Of a DNA stretch of 64,000 bases, positions 6,108 through 47,977 are shown in pieces. This DNA comes from Escherichia phage vB_EcoM_Maryam. Under the pieces are notes generated by a model that saw only the letters and a program-made list of their open reading frames with translations, did no database searches and had not been told where the DNA came from. The translations under genes and the position numbers were made by a program. Where the stretch lies: the sequence record PQ799574.1; one strand, 5' to 3'. Each line of letters starts with the position of its first letter. The stretch's first letter is position 1.

Positions 6108-6341
6108 ATGAAAACGTATCAAGAATTTATTGCTGAAACTGCTGATGTAAAAGTTGAGTTTATTTACACTGGCAAGAAAGATAAAATGGGTGAAATGCCT
6201 CATGGAGTTCTTCGTGATGCATTAGATGATTTCGGTCAACTCGGTGGTGAAGAGTTTGGCGATTACTTTGTTATCTATGGCCCGGCAAAAGTCATTGAGA
6301 AATGGGCTGATAAATATAAATCAATTTTTCGTAAAAAATAA
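6108..6341 (+). CDS. internal protein (ipI position) with capsid-targeting N-terminus
   Basis: N-terminus MKTYQEFIAE equals the T-even internal-protein capsid targeting sequence; body differs from T4 IPI; alternative start 6090. Confidence 0.65.
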   Translation: MKTYQEFIAETADVKVEFIYTGKKDKMGEMPHGVLRDALDDFGQLGGEEFGDYFVIYGPAKVIEKWADKYKSIFRKK

Positions 6342-9571: not shown

Positions 9572-10045
9572 ATGAAATCATATACTCAATTTTTAAATGA
9601 AGCGGTGTTAAATGAAGCATCTAGCACCGAAATTCAAGCTGTCGCAAAAGCAGCCATTGCAGCGGGTAAATATTCTTACAAAGATGCTTCTGATGAATCG
9701 CGATTCCAGTTTGCACGCGACATGAAAGCGGAAGGATTTACGGGAAATGCAGTTAGTATGGCCTGGAAAAGTTTAGTTGCTACTGGCGCTGCTTTTGCAA
9801 AGGCTTCGGGTAAACCTGCTCCTAAAGCAGATCCTAAAGTCGCACAAGAGAAAAATATTGTTAAAGGAATTATCTCCAAATATGAAGCTATCCTTAAAGA
9901 GCTTTTAGTAATCAAAACTGAAGGCCAAAAACTAGCTCGTGCTTATAGTTTCAAAGATAACCCACATGCTCACTCTCTTGAGTATGTTGAAGACATCCAA
10001 AAAATTATTAAAGACCGCATTTGGTCTGCTAAACAAATCAAATAA
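9572..10045 (+). CDS. internal-protein-like head protein (CTS-like N-terminus MKSYTQFLNEA)
   Basis: 157 aa; N-terminus resembles capsid targeting sequence; own late promoter; basic/Ala-rich. Confidence 0.55.
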   Translation: MKSYTQFLNEAVLNEASSTEIQAVAKAAIAAGKYSYKDASDESRFQFARDMKAEGFTGNAVSMAWKSLVATGAAFAKASGKPAPKADPKVAQEKNIVKGIISKYEAILKELLVIKTEGQKLARAYSFKDNPHAHSLEYVEDIQKIIKDRIWSAKQIK

Positions 10046-12953: not shown

Positions 12954-13434
12954 TTTTAAAAACTCGCTGGTATGATTTAGATGATGGGGATGATGGCATT
13001 TCAGTTGATAGAGTTGACTGGAATGGTTGTTCCGAAGATATGAAAAATTTGTTGATTAGGGAGTTTAGAATGGGATATCAAGCAGCTAAGCCATCTATTA
13101 TAACAGATGATAAATTCGTGTGTATTCATAATGGTCGCGCTAAGTTAACGAACGCTGATTGGTTCACAGATAAAATTATGATTCTGTGGTATATTATTAG
13201 TCTTCCTGTGACATCATTCGTATTTTACTTTTTTATAAAAAATCCAATGGACAGAATAGGAGATTGGATTCTTTTAACCATACTTGTTAATATTTTTACA
13301 GCAGCAATATTATCAGGAATATGGTGCGTGTTCATTGAAATGCCATGGCGTTTACGCAGACAGCAAAAGATTTTTGATGAAAAGAAATACGCTCAAAATT
13401 TAAATAACTTTATCACTGAATGCAGGAAATTAAA

Positions 13435-13438
<4 letters not shown>
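12950..13438 (+). CDS. membrane protein (paralogous array member)
   Basis: 162 aa; TM helices; C-terminal FITECRKLK. Confidence 0.5.
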
Positions 13439-14407
<969 letters not shown>

Positions 14408-14411
14408 AGTT

Positions 14412-14443
14412 ATTTACTTTCTCCTAGAATTGTGATAGTATAT
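14412..14443 (+). promoter_or_regulatory. early promoter-like (ATTTAC ... TGTGATAGTATAT)
   Basis: imperfect -35, extended -10. Confidence 0.4.
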
Positions 14444-14501
14444 TCACAGTTACTTGAAGAGATAAATTATTAATTAAAATATTTACATTTAAAGGATACA
14501 C

Positions 14502-14975
14502 ATGAAAACATATCAAGAATTTATTACTGAAGCAGCTATTAATTCTCAAATTATTGCTGAATCTTTTACTGATCTTTTGAAATTTAAAAAAGGACAGAAA
14601 ATCACTGCTGTACTGGATGATGGTACAGAAGTTGAGATGGATGTACAAGGATATAATTATGCAGTAGATGGAAAACTGTATAATAAATCTCATGCTAAAT
14701 TTGATTCATTTGACGACTTTGTTAATACAGTTGAAGATGAAAAAACTCGTAGATCCATTGCAACTGGTGATGCTAAGGTTCTTATGGCACATGGTCATGA
14801 ACGCATTCGCGCTAAACAGAATAAAATGGGTGAAGATAATTTCGCATTAGTTGGTTATCAATCTGGTAAACAAACTTATGGCTATCAACGTACTGCTACC
14901 ATGTATAATAAAAATGGTAAAATTGCCTTTGTGAATAGTAAAGGTTCTATTCAGTACGTTAAATCGTTCAAATAA
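14502..14975 (+). CDS. internal protein (ipII/ipIII position) with capsid targeting sequence MKTYQEFITEA
   Basis: 157 aa; canonical CTS N-terminus; sits next to gene e. Confidence 0.6.
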   Translation: MKTYQEFITEAAINSQIIAESFTDLLKFKKGQKITAVLDDGTEVEMDVQGYNYAVDGKLYNKSHAKFDSFDDFVNTVEDEKTRRSIATGDAKVLMAHGHERIRAKQNKMGEDNFALVGYQSGKQTYGYQRTATMYNKNGKIAFVNSKGSIQYVKSFK

Positions 14976-15115
14976 TATGGGAACAACCTGGACCTCATGA
15001 TTCTATGAGGGATTCCCGCCAACCTGTAATAAGGTCGAGCCTAAGTGCGGTAATGGGTAAATACAGAAATGGACAATTCATGCGCCATGGAATGGCCCAA
15101 ACTTAGAGAGAAGAA

Positions 15116-15655
15116 ATGAGAACATTTTTAACTGGTCCTTATCTATCCCTGATGAATGCTTTTACACACCATTCTGATGCTAGAGTAGAAGAAATTTGTA
15201 AAAACGAATATATCCCGCCATTTGAAGAATTACTTAAACAGTACTGCACACTTCGTATAGATGGTGGACGTCAATCCGGTAAATCAATTGCTGTGACTAA
15301 CTTTGCTGCTAATTGGCTGTATGATGGCGGAACAGTTATTGTTCTTTCTAATACTTCAGCTTACGCTAAAATTTCTGCAAATAACATTAAAAAGGAATTT
15401 TCGCGTTATTCTAATGATGATATACGTTTTCGTTTATTTACTGATTCTGTGCGCAGTTTTATTGGTAATAAAGGAAGTAAGTTCAGAGGTTTATCGCTTT
15501 CGCGAATTTTGTATATAATTGATGAGCCTGTCAAATCTCCTGATATGGATAAGATTTATAGCGTCCATATTGACACTGTACACTACTGCTGTAATAGTAA
15601 ATGTTGCATTGGTGGTATTACTCGTCCGCAGTTTTTCGTAATCGGAATGCAATGA
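15116..15655 (+). CDS. small P-loop NTPase-like protein
   Basis: 179 aa; Walker A DGGRQSGKS and Walker B-like ILYIIDEP. Confidence 0.5.
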   Translation: MRTFLTGPYLSLMNAFTHHSDARVEEICKNEYIPPFEELLKQYCTLRIDGGRQSGKSIAVTNFAANWLYDGGTVIVLSNTSAYAKISANNIKKEFSRYSNDDIRFRLFTDSVRSFIGNKGSKFRGLSLSRILYIIDEPVKSPDMDKIYSVHIDTVHYCCNSKCCIGGITRPQFFVIGMQ

Positions 15656-15981
15656 TGACAGACACACAGCTTTTCGAATATCTCTATTTTTCGCCAAAAA
15701 CTATTAAAAATAAATTGGTAAATCATTTTGAAATTTTGGCAAATAACAACATTTTAAGCGAATTTTATCCCAAGCAATACAAATTACAAAAAGGTGTATT
15801 CAAAGGATGCAGAGTTTTGTGCACTGCTCCTAATTCACGGCTAATGAATAAAATTCCGTATTTTACCATGGAATTTATTGATGGACCTTTTAAAGGATTA
15901 ATTACCCAAAGTTTAATGGCATATGATTCTGAGCCATTTTTAATTAAAGAACAATCTTGGATAAATTTATTTTCTAATTGA
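15655..15981 (+). CDS. hypothetical protein
   Basis: 108 aa from ATG 15655. Confidence 0.45.
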
Positions 15982-15988
15982 GGTTTAT

Positions 15989-16351
15989 ATGAAAGCATAT
16001 CAAATTCTTGAAGGCACACATAAAGGTACTATTTATTTTGAAGATGGTATTCAAGCACGAATTATTGTCTCTAAAACCTTTAAAGAGGACTCTTTTGTAG
16101 ACCCAGAAATTTTCTATGGTTTGCATGCCCGTGAAATTGAAATTGAGCCACAACCTACAGTTAAAATTGAAGGTGGTCAACACCTGAACGTTAACGTTCT
16201 GCGTCGTGAAACTCTGGAAGATGCAGTTAAGCATCCGGAAAAATATCCGCAACTGACCATCCGTGTATCCGGTTATGCAGTTCGCTTTAACTCTCTGACT
16301 CCGGAACAGCAGCGCGACGTTATCGCTCGTACCTTTACCGAGAGTTTGTAA
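15989..16351 (+). CDS. autonomous glycyl radical cofactor (GrcA/YfiD-like)
   Basis: 120 aa; C-terminal glycyl radical motif RVSGYAVRF. Confidence 0.8.
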
Positions 16352-16572
16352 TGGCAAAGATAATTATTGAAGGTTCTGAAGATGTGCTAAATGCTTTCGC
16401 CGAGTGGTTTAGTAATTCAGGCGAACAGCAATTTAACGAAGCGTGGAATATGGGTGATATTGATGGAATTTATCCTACGACAGAAATTTCTGTTCAGGGA
16501 TATGGCATTCATGAACCTATTCGTTTAGTTGAATATGATTTATGTACTGGTGAGGAAGTCAAATATGATTGA
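16351..16572 (+). CDS. hypothetical protein
   Basis: 73 aa, acidic; translationally coupled. Confidence 0.45.
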   Translation: MAKIIIEGSEDVLNAFAEWFSNSGEQQFNEAWNMGDIDGIYPTTEISVQGYGIHEPIRLVEYDLCTGEEVKYD

Positions 16573-16831
16573 AGACATTAAAGGTTATAAGCCGCATACT
16601 GAAGAGAAAATCGGTAAAGTAAATGCTATCAAAGATGCTGAAGTTCGTTTAGGACTTATCTTTGACGCTTTATACGATGAATTCTGGGAAGCACTAGATA
16701 ATTGCGAAGACTATGAATTCGCGAAGAATTATGCTGAAAGCCTCGATCAGTTAACTATTGCTAAAACGAAACTCAAAGAAGCCAGTATGTGGGCTTGTCG
16801 TGCAGTGTTCCAACCAGAGGAAAAATACTAA
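16565..16831 (+). CDS. hypothetical protein
   Basis: 88 aa from ATG 16565. Confidence 0.45.
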
Positions 16832-17109
16832 TGGCTCAATTAAGTGCAGGGTTTGGTTATGAGTATTATACTGCACCTCGTCGTGTATCTGCTGCTCCTA
16901 AGAAAATTCAAAGTCTTGATGACTTCCAGGAAGTAGTCCGTAAAGCTTTCCAGGACTATGCACGTTATCTTAAAGAAGATTCGCAGGACTGTCTCGAAGA
17001 AGATGAAATTGCTTACTATGAGCAGCGTCTTGAACAGCTTAAAAACTTACATGAGGTTCGTGCAGAAGTTTCAAAGTCTATGAATAAATTGATTAGATTT
17101 AAAGAATAA
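16831..17109 (+). CDS. hypothetical protein
   Basis: 92 aa from ATG 16831. Confidence 0.45.
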
Positions 17110-45289: not shown

Positions 45290-45478
45290 ATGGAATATTC
45301 AACTGGACAGCATCTATTAACTATTCCTGAAATAAAACGATATATTCTGAGAAATAATTTTTCTAATGAAGAGCATATAGTTACTGAATCTATGCTTAGG
45401 AATGCATTTAAAGCAGAATATACAAAAATAATGTCCAATAGAAATGAAGCTTGGACTGTTACTGATTATTATGACTAA
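45290..45478 (+). CDS. hypothetical protein
   Basis: 62 aa. Confidence 0.45.
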   Translation: MEYSTGQHLLTIPEIKRYILRNNFSNEEHIVTESMLRNAFKAEYTKIMSNRNEAWTVTDYYD

Positions 45479-45487
45479 AGGTGTATT

Positions 45488-45877
45488 ATGACTAAAATTA
45501 CTGTGAATTATACTGTTGATGTAAAAGATATTCAGCCAAAACACGTGCGTTCTGAATCAAATCCACAAAACCAAAATAAAATTCGTCGCGCATGGGTTTT
45601 GTCTCTTTCTGATAACGCAATGGAAGTTATTCAGAATAAAATTAAATCTGCACCTGCTCGTCATGCGTATTATGAAGCTATCGATCGTGAAGTAAGTAAT
45701 AAATGGATTGAACTAATGCGCAAACATACTACAGAATCCCTAAACGCCGGTGCTAAATTTATTATGACTTCATGTGGTGAACGCCTTGAAGATGATTATT
45801 GTGGTAATGCAGATGAACGTCTAATTGTTGCTGCTCAAATTGTTGCGGAAACAATTGCGGCTGATTTTAATCGTTAA
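45488..45877 (+). CDS. rpbA: RNA polymerase-binding protein RpbA
   Basis: 129 aa; position between gene 46 and gene 45. Confidence 0.7.
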
Positions 45878-45878
45878 T

Positions 45879-45905
45879 TGCTTTATTAAATTAGTTATAA
45901 AATTA
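45879..45905 (+). promoter_or_regulatory. putative middle promoter for gene 45 (MotA box TGCTTTA)
   Basis: TGCTTTA at 45879-45885 followed by an A/T -10-like element; spacing slightly short. Confidence 0.35.
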
Positions 45906-45932
45906 AATCTCATTTGAATTGAAGGAAATTAC

Positions 45933-45992
45933 ATGAAACTGTCTAAAGATACTACTGCTCTGCTTAAAAATTTCGCTACTATTAACTCGTAA
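45933..45992 (+). pseudogene. 45: truncated sliding clamp gene 45: first 19 codons then stop
   Basis: MKLSKDTTALLKNFATINS matches recalled gp45 N-terminus; expected GIMLKSG continuation is replaced by TAA; rest of the 228-codon gene absent. Confidence 0.8.
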
Positions 45993-46062
45993 TTAAAATC
46001 GCAGCAGTTTTTTCATTCAGAACATCGTTAGAAGCTTTGATGATGTAAGTTACTTTAGACAT
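45982..46062 (-). pseudogene. motA: truncated motA: first about 25 codons on minus strand, then unrelated codons and stop
   Basis: minus-strand MSKVTYIIKASNDVLNEKTAAILIT matches recalled MotA N-terminus; similarity ends at 45988, abutting the gene 45 fragment. Confidence 0.75.
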
Positions 46063-46159
46063 TTTGTTTCTCCGTAGTTGATAAGACTATAATACCATAA
46101 GTTAAAGCAGAAGTAAACTTTATTTTGAGCTCTTTTTCAAGAGCTCTGGTAAAAATTAC

Positions 46160-46375
46160 TTAGATTGATAGGTCTTTAATCTTAGCTATTAAAACAGCTT
46201 TTCCTTCACGAAGTTTTTCCAGTTTACGACCATTAGAGCCGCGAACTACTAAGGAATTTATCTCCACTTCCAACCAATTTAGTTTTTCAACTAGTTCTTT
46301 ACGTTTAGCATTCATGCCGGGTTTAACTTTACCGAAACGGGTGGTAGCGTTTTGAGTATTTTTCATCTTATTCAT
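46160..46375 (-). CDS. hypothetical basic protein
   Basis: 71 aa; ggag RBS. Confidence 0.5.
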   Translation of the reverse strand: MNKMKNTQNATTRFGKVKPGMNAKRKELVEKLNWLEVEINSLVVRGSNGRKLEKLREGKAVLIAKIKDLSI

Positions 46376-46414
46376 TTTAATCTCCAGTTATTTTTCTGTA
46401 TCAGTGTTGATAGG

Positions 46415-46447
46415 GTAATAGTACCATGGAATGCTTTGGTTGTAAAC
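46415..46447 (-). promoter_or_regulatory. T4-type early promoter, minus strand (GTTTAC ... TGGTACTATTAC)
   Basis: reverse complement shows GTTTAC, 15-nt spacer, extended -10; shares ctattaccctatcaac with the promoters at 6061 and 6361. Confidence 0.65.
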
Positions 46448-46469
46448 CGTTTTGTGAAAAAAATTTTAA

Positions 46470-46497
46470 ATAAAAAAGGGAGAGCCGAGGCTCTCCC
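46470..46497 (-). terminator. rho-independent terminator, minus strand (gggagagcc hairpin + T run on minus)
   Basis: 9-bp GC stem; A run precedes on plus strand, so T run follows on minus. Confidence 0.65.
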
Positions 46498-46502
46498 TAA
46501 AA

Positions 46503-46652
46503 TTACTGCATGACTGTGATAACTGTCATGATAACACGTTGAATTCCGAACGCAAGAAGACCTCCTGCTACGGCTGGAACAACGCCTAAACCAGCCAGTA
46601 AAATGCTACCAGATACTAATGCAGCGCTTGTAATACCAATGAATGGACTCAT
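46503..46652 (-). CDS. small hydrophobic membrane peptide
   Basis: 49 aa MSPFIGITSAALVSGSILLAGLGVV...; ATGA overlap with gene 52 stop. Confidence 0.4.
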   Translation of the reverse strand: MSPFIGITSAALVSGSILLAGLGVVPAVAGGLLAFGIQRVIMTVITVMQ

Positions 46653-47977
46653 TTGATTTCCTCTAAATCTTTGGTGTATTCGGTAACTACATCAGTAGTT
46701 TTCCAATATTCGTTTTCTTCTTTTTTAGCTTTAGCTTCTTCAGCAAGTTTCTTTGCTTCATCGGAAGTCATATGAAAAATATTCATTCCAACTAGTTTAT
46801 CAACATAAGAAGAATACATATCGATTTTCGAAAGTTCTTCGGTCAGTTCTTTACGAGTTTTACCCTGTACAACAATTTCACCTGAAATTACTTTCTTAAT
46901 GAAATGTGCCTTGGCAAAGGCTAAACGAAAAGCTGATTCAGTTTCTTTAATTTTGTTATCAATTCGTTTTTGGACATAAGTTTTACGAACTTCAACGAAG
47001 TCTTTAATTAAATCAACTACGTTATCGTAAACTTGTAGTTTTCCTTTCTCATTAATAACCGTAATATTCTGAGAACGACGCTCAATCAACCCAAAGTCTT
47101 TCATAATTTTTGCATGGCGTTCTTCTTCATTATCGCTCAAAGAATATTCTTTACGGAATTTAACTTTGAATCCAAAACCGTGCTCACCGCAAGCATCATC
47201 CCATGTAATGAAGCCTTTATCTTCAAGTGGGTCTAAGATTTTACTCACATAAGTTTCACGATCATACTTATATGGAATCTCAGTGATATGCATTTGAGTT
47301 CGTGAAGTAAACTTATATGTTCCGCGAATTTCATATTGACCATCAATCTCAACGACTTCACCACGAAATTCTGGGAATTCTACCTTCGGTTTAGTTACTT
47401 TCTTTCCTTGAAGAGCTTGCAGTACAGCTTTCTTGACAGAAGAAACACTATGAGGAAGAATGTAAGTTGCATAACCAGTTGCAATACCGGAAACGCCATT
47501 AAGAAGAACAGTAGGAATAATAGGTAAATAGAAAGCAGGCGGAATGTGTTCTTTATCTTGATGTACCGGAGCATATTCAGTATCTTTATATACGTTATAG
47601 AAATTTTTACTTACACGAGCAAAAATATAACGACTTGCTGCTGCTTTTTGGACGGTACGAGAACCAAAGTTTCCTTGACCATCTAACAGAGGAAAATTAT
47701 TATTCCAAGTGTTAGCCATCAAAGCACCTGCGTCTTGTGCAGAGTTTTCGCCATGGTGATATCCAAGGTCCGCTACACCACCTGCAATAGAAGCAAGTTT
47801 GTGAAACTTATCTTTATTTCCTCGTGCCAAATCAAGAGCTCGAGCAATAACAAATCGTTGAACTGGCTTAAATCCATCAATCATATTTGGAATGGCACGA
47901 TTTTCAACCGTGTACATAGCATAAGCCAATGCTTCATTATCAATGATACTTTTTAAATCGCGATTATTCAGTTGCAT
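46649..47977 (-). CDS. 52: DNA topoisomerase II medium subunit gp52 (GyrA-like)
   Basis: 442 aa; conserved GyrA-like N-terminal region (PNMIDGFKPVQRFVIARAL). Confidence 0.9.
   Translation of the reverse strand: MQLNNRDLKSIIDNEALAYAMYTVENRAIPNMIDGFKPVQRFVIARALDLARGNKDKFHKLASIAGGVADLGYHHGENSAQDAGALMANTWNNNFPLLDGQGNFGSRTVQKAAASRYIFARVSKNFYNVYKDTEYAPVHQDKEHIPPAFYLPIIPTVLLNGVSGIATGYATYILPHSVSSVKKAVLQALQGKKVTKPKVEFPEFRGEVVEIDGQYEIRGTYKFTSRTQMHITEIPYKYDRETYVSKILDPLEDKGFITWDDACGEHGFGFKVKFRKEYSLSDNEEERHAKIMKDFGLIERRSQNITVINEKGKLQVYDNVVDLIKDFVEVRKTYVQKRIDNKIKETESAFRLAFAKAHFIKKVISGEIVVQGKTRKELTEELSKIDMYSSYVDKLVGMNIFHMTSDEAKKLAEEAKAKKEENEYWKTTDVVTEYTKDLEEIK

Follow-up and report, generated by a model that had tools for sequence, protein, structure and literature searches.

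The internal proteins of T-even phages were classically regarded as structural proteins or DNA counter-ions, and one of their genes, ip4, has carried its name since the 1990s. Each of T4 Ip1, Ip2 and Ip3 blocks a single type IV restriction enzyme of the GmrSD type, without cross-protection (Silas et al. 2025, PMC12373910), and Bas37_0260, also a protein with a targeting sequence, inhibits McrBC (HIDEN-SEQ preprint 2025, 10.1101/2025.11.20.689424). Since 2025, all characterised T-even internal proteins have thus been specific inhibitors of type IV restriction enzymes. Ip4 is the most widespread T-even internal protein still uncharacterised, with 470 phage records by tblastn, and is the majority Tequatrovirus allele at its locus. 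In the literature searched it is absent from main texts and occurs in one supplementary legend (PMC12373910, Supplementary Fig. 9), and no data on its presence in virions or on its injection were found in the searchable literature. When ip4-10 were assayed against active GmrSD variants, no reproducible inhibition was seen (PMC12373910, section 10 and Supplementary Fig. 9).

We analysed the ip4 locus of Escherichia phage vB_EcoM_Maryam in a 64,000-nucleotide stretch of sequence record PQ799574.1 (the window), to which all coordinates refer; the features described are on the + strand. The open reading frame at 14502..14975 has 157 codons and a TAA stop (ATG at 14502, TAA at 14973-14975), with an AAGGA Shine-Dalgarno sequence at 14492-14496, 5 nt 5' of the ATG. 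As the original prediction had stated, it adjoins lysozyme gene e, encodes a 157-aa product with the N-terminus MKTYQEFITEA and is the third open reading frame of the window with such an N-terminus, the others being at 6108..6341 and 9572..10045. The product matches PF24183 (DUF7412) over its full length, with residues 1-157 on model positions 1-158 (E 5.7e-96; 319.4 bits against a gathering cut-off of 27), and also PHROG 3155 (phrog_3155), "internal virion protein" (E 6e-102). It is 100% identical to the product of the T2 CDS that follows the lysozyme gene and 99% identical to UniProt Q38388, "Ip4 [Enterobacteria phage K3]". In RB14 the same CDS, whose protein is again 100% identical, is annotated "Ip4, internal virion protein; similar to T2, RB70 Ip4". 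Judged by sequence, the Maryam open reading frame is the already catalogued ip4, a known gene of a known kind: it encodes the same protein in the same place after e as in T2, K3, RB70, RB14 and RB32, with no difference of substance from any of them, and its value is one of context, not discovery. A chance open reading frame is ruled out by the 319-bit PF24183 match together with purifying selection, as seen in dN/dS and in the comparison with RB14 given below.

The region from e to vs.8 is one of two polymorphic ip loci. T4 has ipIII and ipII there, in the order e-ipIII-ipII-denV-vs.8, whereas the order in the Maryam window, T2 and RB14 is e-ip4-vs.8. Jiaodavirus FRZ284 has a full array, e-ip4-ipIII-ipII-vs.8, and Bas37 (MZ501089) has e-denV-vs.8 with no ip gene; Bas38 and Bas43 carry ip4. 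The slot between e and vs.8 has at least four alleles, and the ip4-type phages are without denV at this locus. The conserved 5' neighbour of ip4 is the T4-type, 164-aa lysozyme gene e (13913..14407). The succession of e and ip4 is found in Tequatrovirus, Gelderlandvirus, Jiaodavirus and Muldoonvirus, with the order nudE-e-ip4 kept, and in the last three of these genera ip4 abuts or overlaps e, the Tequatrovirus spacer being absent.

Alignment of the window to T4 by blastn shows which part differs. The segments 13002-14533 and 14975-17000 align and the part between them is replaced. The left breakpoint, at 14533, falls within the open reading frame just past the targeting-sequence codons, such that DNA homology with T4 ipIII/ipII includes the first 32 nt of ip4; the right breakpoint, at 14975, coincides with the final nucleotide of the ip4 stop and is equivalent to the T4 denV stop. 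The segment without T4 DNA homology (14534..14974) is a 441 bp ip4 body that stands in place of the T4 ipIII body, ipII and denV (~1.44 kb in T4). Upstream of the start codon, the 94-nt intergenic cassette (14408..14501; ATTTAC...TAGTAT plus the ribosome-binding site) aligns with T4 and is a candidate promoter region. The T4 e-to-ipIII spacer has nearly the same sequence, and a copy of the spacer is also found 5' of T4 ipII, along with a residual piece of the e 3' end; a second blastn piece (14421-14533) matches the T4 ipII upstream region. The repeated unit of spacer and targeting-sequence codons would be an obvious substrate for homologous exchange or deletion in a tandem array. Within the 3' end of e, the sequence TATAAAAA (14393..14400) is late-promoter-like by consensus match only, with one mismatch to the T4 late-promoter consensus TATAAATA, and T4 has the same sequence in the same position.

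The assignment of the gene to the internal-protein group on the strength of a canonical capsid targeting sequence is borne out, since the Ip4 sequence MKTYQEFITE (codons 1-10, 14502..14531) is one substitution away from the MKTYQEFIAE of T4 IPII and IPIII. Among 14 homologues, M1, K2, F7 and E10 are invariant. Hydrophobic-x-Glu is the context cut by the T4 prohead protease, gp21, and Ip4 has two such sites, ITE/A at residues 8-10 and IAE/S at residues 18-20 (the slash marks the predicted cut). We infer a first cleavage after Glu10 and a second after Glu20, the latter removing the linker (codons 11-20, 14532..14561) as in T4 IPI, whose second site is ITE/A at residue 19. All close Ip4 homologues have [I/L/M]-x-E followed by S or A at this second position, E20 is invariant, and the distant homologues retain LNE/S. 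Even where the DNA has diverged, the protein retains its targeting sequence and its two Glu sites, as seen in Gelderlandvirus, in Muldoonvirus and in metagenomic homologues of 34-36% identity.

The predicted mature body (residues 21-157, 14562..14972) has a mass of 15.5 kDa and a pI of 9.3; the range over the predicted mature products, 15.5-16.5 kDa and pI 9.1-9.3, lies within that of IPI*, IPII* and IPIII*, and the net charge is small, about +4 to +5. Ip4 has no Cys, Pro or Trp. The original prediction had described the protein as rich in Gly, Tyr and Lys, which holds for Lys (11.5%) and Tyr (5.7%) but not for Gly, at an average 7.6%. AlphaFold2 with a 15-sequence alignment gave a model with a pLDDT of 83.8 and a pTM of 0.78, all five models falling at 82-84. 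The core is mostly above pLDDT 90, residues 1-20 are of low confidence and residues 10-18 are below 50. In order, the model consists of a beta-hairpin, three helices and four C-terminal strands, and it depicts a basic, well-folded body. The independent BFVD model of Q38388 superposes on it with a TM of 0.88, and in the BFVD structure search this Ip4 of phage K3 was the sole match. The structure searches with the model returned weak neighbours (Sm/Hfq, L19, Tudor and SH3-like barrels) but no enzyme-like or otherwise convincing known fold. A dsRNA-binding domain suggested by sequence search (PDB 3vyy, E 0.52) was backed by neither structure search. The AHGHERIRA motif pointed out earlier is present at residues 96-104, and we reject it as a metal-binding or catalytic motif: in close homologues Y or F takes the place of H97, and distant homologues lack both His residues, so that His-Gly-His is not a family-wide feature.

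Close identity to an IPII or IPIII orthologue would have undone the view of the Ip4 body as distinct, and alignment disclosed none. Against mature Ip4, BLASTP gave E 2.9 for IPII* and E 16 for IPIII*, no significant similarity. The T4 sizes from which the distinction was first drawn are also right in substance, at 100 aa for IPII and 193 aa for IPIII. T4 IPIII and IPII (the GmrSD-ECOR17/GmrSD-ECOR21 inhibitors) share with Ip4 the e-vs.8 locus, the upstream cassette, a targeting sequence and a basic product, and are encoded in tandem with it in Jiaodavirus, but the similarity ends at the N-terminal propeptide. T4 IPI* (the GmrSD-CT596 inhibitor; PF11634) resembles Ip4 in its targeting sequence, in a second Glu site near residue 19-20 and in being small and basic; it is injected, as Ip4 is predicted to be. 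An apparent homology between Ip4 and IPI* (BLASTP E 3e-4, hhalign 86%) came entirely from the N-terminal propeptide and was lost on trimmed alignments: with the propeptide removed, hhalign of mature Ip4 against the PF11634 family gave a probability of 0.6% (E 0.1), and Pfam gave no PF11634 match. Likewise, where Ip4 matches other ip families in PHROG, the match is confined to residues 1-14 or 1-25. Bas37_0260 is, like Ip4, a Tequatrovirus protein with a targeting sequence, but it differs in having an unrelated body, another locus and a near-neutral pI. The mature Ip4 body is also unrelated to the products of 6108..6341 and 9572..10045.

The description of the body as non-canonical stands insofar as it is unlike IPII and IPIII, yet Ip4 is the commoner allele at the locus. 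The record counts make this plain, with 470 for Ip4 set against 497 for endolysins at least 95% identical to Maryam e and 261 for IPIII. The DNA of the region is 97-100% identical to that of hundreds of Tequatrovirus genomes. At the protein level, 306 of the 470 Ip4 records show 95% identity or more (Escherichia, Shigella, Yersinia and Citrobacter phages) and ~160 are 60-80% identical (Klebsiella, Salmonella and Serratia phages). An exhaustive profile search of 1.84 billion protein representatives enlarged the set by only three full-length homologues, each beginning with a phage-type N-terminus, the remaining hits being fragments or repeat noise. With this outcome we discard the idea of distant non-phage relatives; the PDB profile search likewise gave no relative outside the phage family, and an NCBIfam scan gave nothing meaningful. 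The metagenomic homologues at 34-36% identity sit in T4-like contexts, one adjoining a denV-like gene and another between dNMP kinase/Acb1 genes and a ValRS modifier gene.

Across genera, and for the same phage pairs, amino-acid identity is ~70% for Ip4, 65-68% for lysozyme e and 44-57% for nudE. Compared with homologues in other genera, ip4 has a dN/dS of 0.13-0.15 (dS near saturation), and the comparison with RB14 shows 7% synonymous differences and not one nonsynonymous change. These values show ip4 to be under strong purifying selection, and it appears from the sequences to be inherited vertically together with its neighbours. T4 IPIII, for comparison, is 86-89% identical to its Klebsiella-phage copies where Ip4 is at ~69%, a similarity well above the backbone divergence that suggests recent exchange of ipIII.

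What does Ip4 do? Our preferred reading, in which we place about as much trust as doubt, is that Ip4, once injected, binds and inhibits a host defence, probably a type IV restriction system. The inhibitor role is proposed because four of the four characterised members are injected inhibitors of modification-dependent restriction. The precursor would enter the prohead core through its N-terminal targeting sequence and be cut by gp21 after Glu10 and probably also after Glu20, and the basic product of ~15.5-16.5 kDa would remain in the head and be injected with the DNA. Once in the cell, it would inhibit, by stoichiometric binding, a host defence nuclease that attacks modified, glucosyl-hydroxymethylcytosine DNA. 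Its target would be a type IV restriction system that none of Ip1, Ip2, Ip3 and Bas37_0260 blocks. Three observations weigh against a type IV inhibitor. The GmrSD screen of ip4-10 was negative (PMC12373910); T2, which has an identical Ip4, is still restricted by the GmrSD systems of ECOR17 and ECOR21 (PMC12373910); and Ip4 is as conserved as the endolysin in four genera with different hosts. Conservation to this extent (~70% aa, dN/dS ~0.14) is more readily reconciled with a conserved target than with a rapid arms race against the hypervariable GmrSD.

The same evidence lends some substance to a different proposal, possible though doubtful, that injected Ip4 acts on a conserved host factor or on another class of defence and not on type IV restriction. 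Its conservation equals or exceeds that of its neighbours e and nudE in Escherichia, Salmonella, Klebsiella and Serratia phages, its position is fixed, and the negative result with GmrSD (PMC12373910) counts in its favour. The barrels among the weak structural neighbours of the model also speak for it, with the small beta-barrel core possibly serving to bind nucleic acid or protein. Taken together, endolysin-like conservation, the fixed place after e and a confidently predicted fold without a match suggest a conserved target, not another GmrSD subtype. More speculatively, and with the balance tilted clearly towards its being wrong, Ip4 may be the ancestral, vertically inherited member of the ip array at the e locus, directed at a target conserved in Enterobacteriaceae (for example a defence found widely or a core factor of the host) through a fold without a solved relative, and lost by T4. 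If so, Ip4 would be unlike the subtype-specific Ip1-3, and T4 would be the odd one out.

It is unlikely that Ip4 is mainly a structural protein of the head interior or a DNA counter-ion that aids DNA condensation or ejection and has no dedicated host target. Mature Ip4 is basic and the gene is strongly conserved and vertically inherited, as structural genes are, but T4 and Bas37 lack ip4 and are fully viable, the net charge is small, and the equally basic Ip1-3 proved to have specific targets (PMC12373910). Finally, that Ip4 is not packaged, its targeting-sequence codons persisting only as part of a shared ip recombination cassette, is highly improbable: the 5' cassette and first 32 nt are indeed common to T4 ipIII/ipII at the DNA level, but targeting sequence and Glu sites are kept in the protein where the DNA has diverged, and in the diverged genera, where ip4 directly adjoins e, the Tequatrovirus cassette is missing.

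Downstream of ip4, the right-hand homology arm (14976..15115) is conserved and G+C-rich; the T4 annotation makes it the first 33 vs.8 codons, which an in-frame TAG closes in Maryam. Two changes break vs.8 with respect to T4 (15005..15106): TAT to TAG at 15104-15106, and a 9-nt deletion that removes one copy of a CTTATAGAG tandem repeat. A 179-aa open reading frame restarts at 15116 (15116..15655), and RB14 shares the break. Within the arm, a G+C-rich element (15010-15105) has a core, ACCTGTAATAAGGTCGAGC..AAG.G.GG.AA, conserved in six of the six copies compared, and is more conserved at the nucleotide level than the flanking genes. Further copies are at 3706-3790 of L009, 3051-3135 and 3531-3662 of L007, and 4398-4497 of L003, and in Klebsiella and Salmonella phages copies occur in the spacers of the ip arrays. 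The element may be a regulatory or recombination cassette; a structured RNA was rejected, with no Rfam match, a fold z-score of -0.42 and no covariation.

The two other targeting-sequence proteins of the window lie upstream. The 77-aa protein at 6108..6341 (MKTYQEFIAETADVK...), in the 57B/ipI locus, is 83% identical to Bas37_0260 and matches no Pfam family. The 157-aa product of 9572..10045, situated between the tRNA cluster and e.8, has a targeting-like N-terminus (MKSYTQFLNE/A), matches phrog_2280 (no assigned function) and has no Pfam match; it probably represents one more internal protein, as yet without a name.

At about 45,300-47,000 of the window, gene polarity switches from + to -. The topoisomerase gene 52 region (46400-47500) equates to ~160 kb in RB27, whereas ip4 equates to ~62 kb, and this mismatch implies that the window is not collinear with T4-type genomes, indicating a rearrangement, an assembly join or contigs that were concatenated. 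Among DNA matches to the ip4 region the best is PV290051.1, a record of just 46,924 bp.
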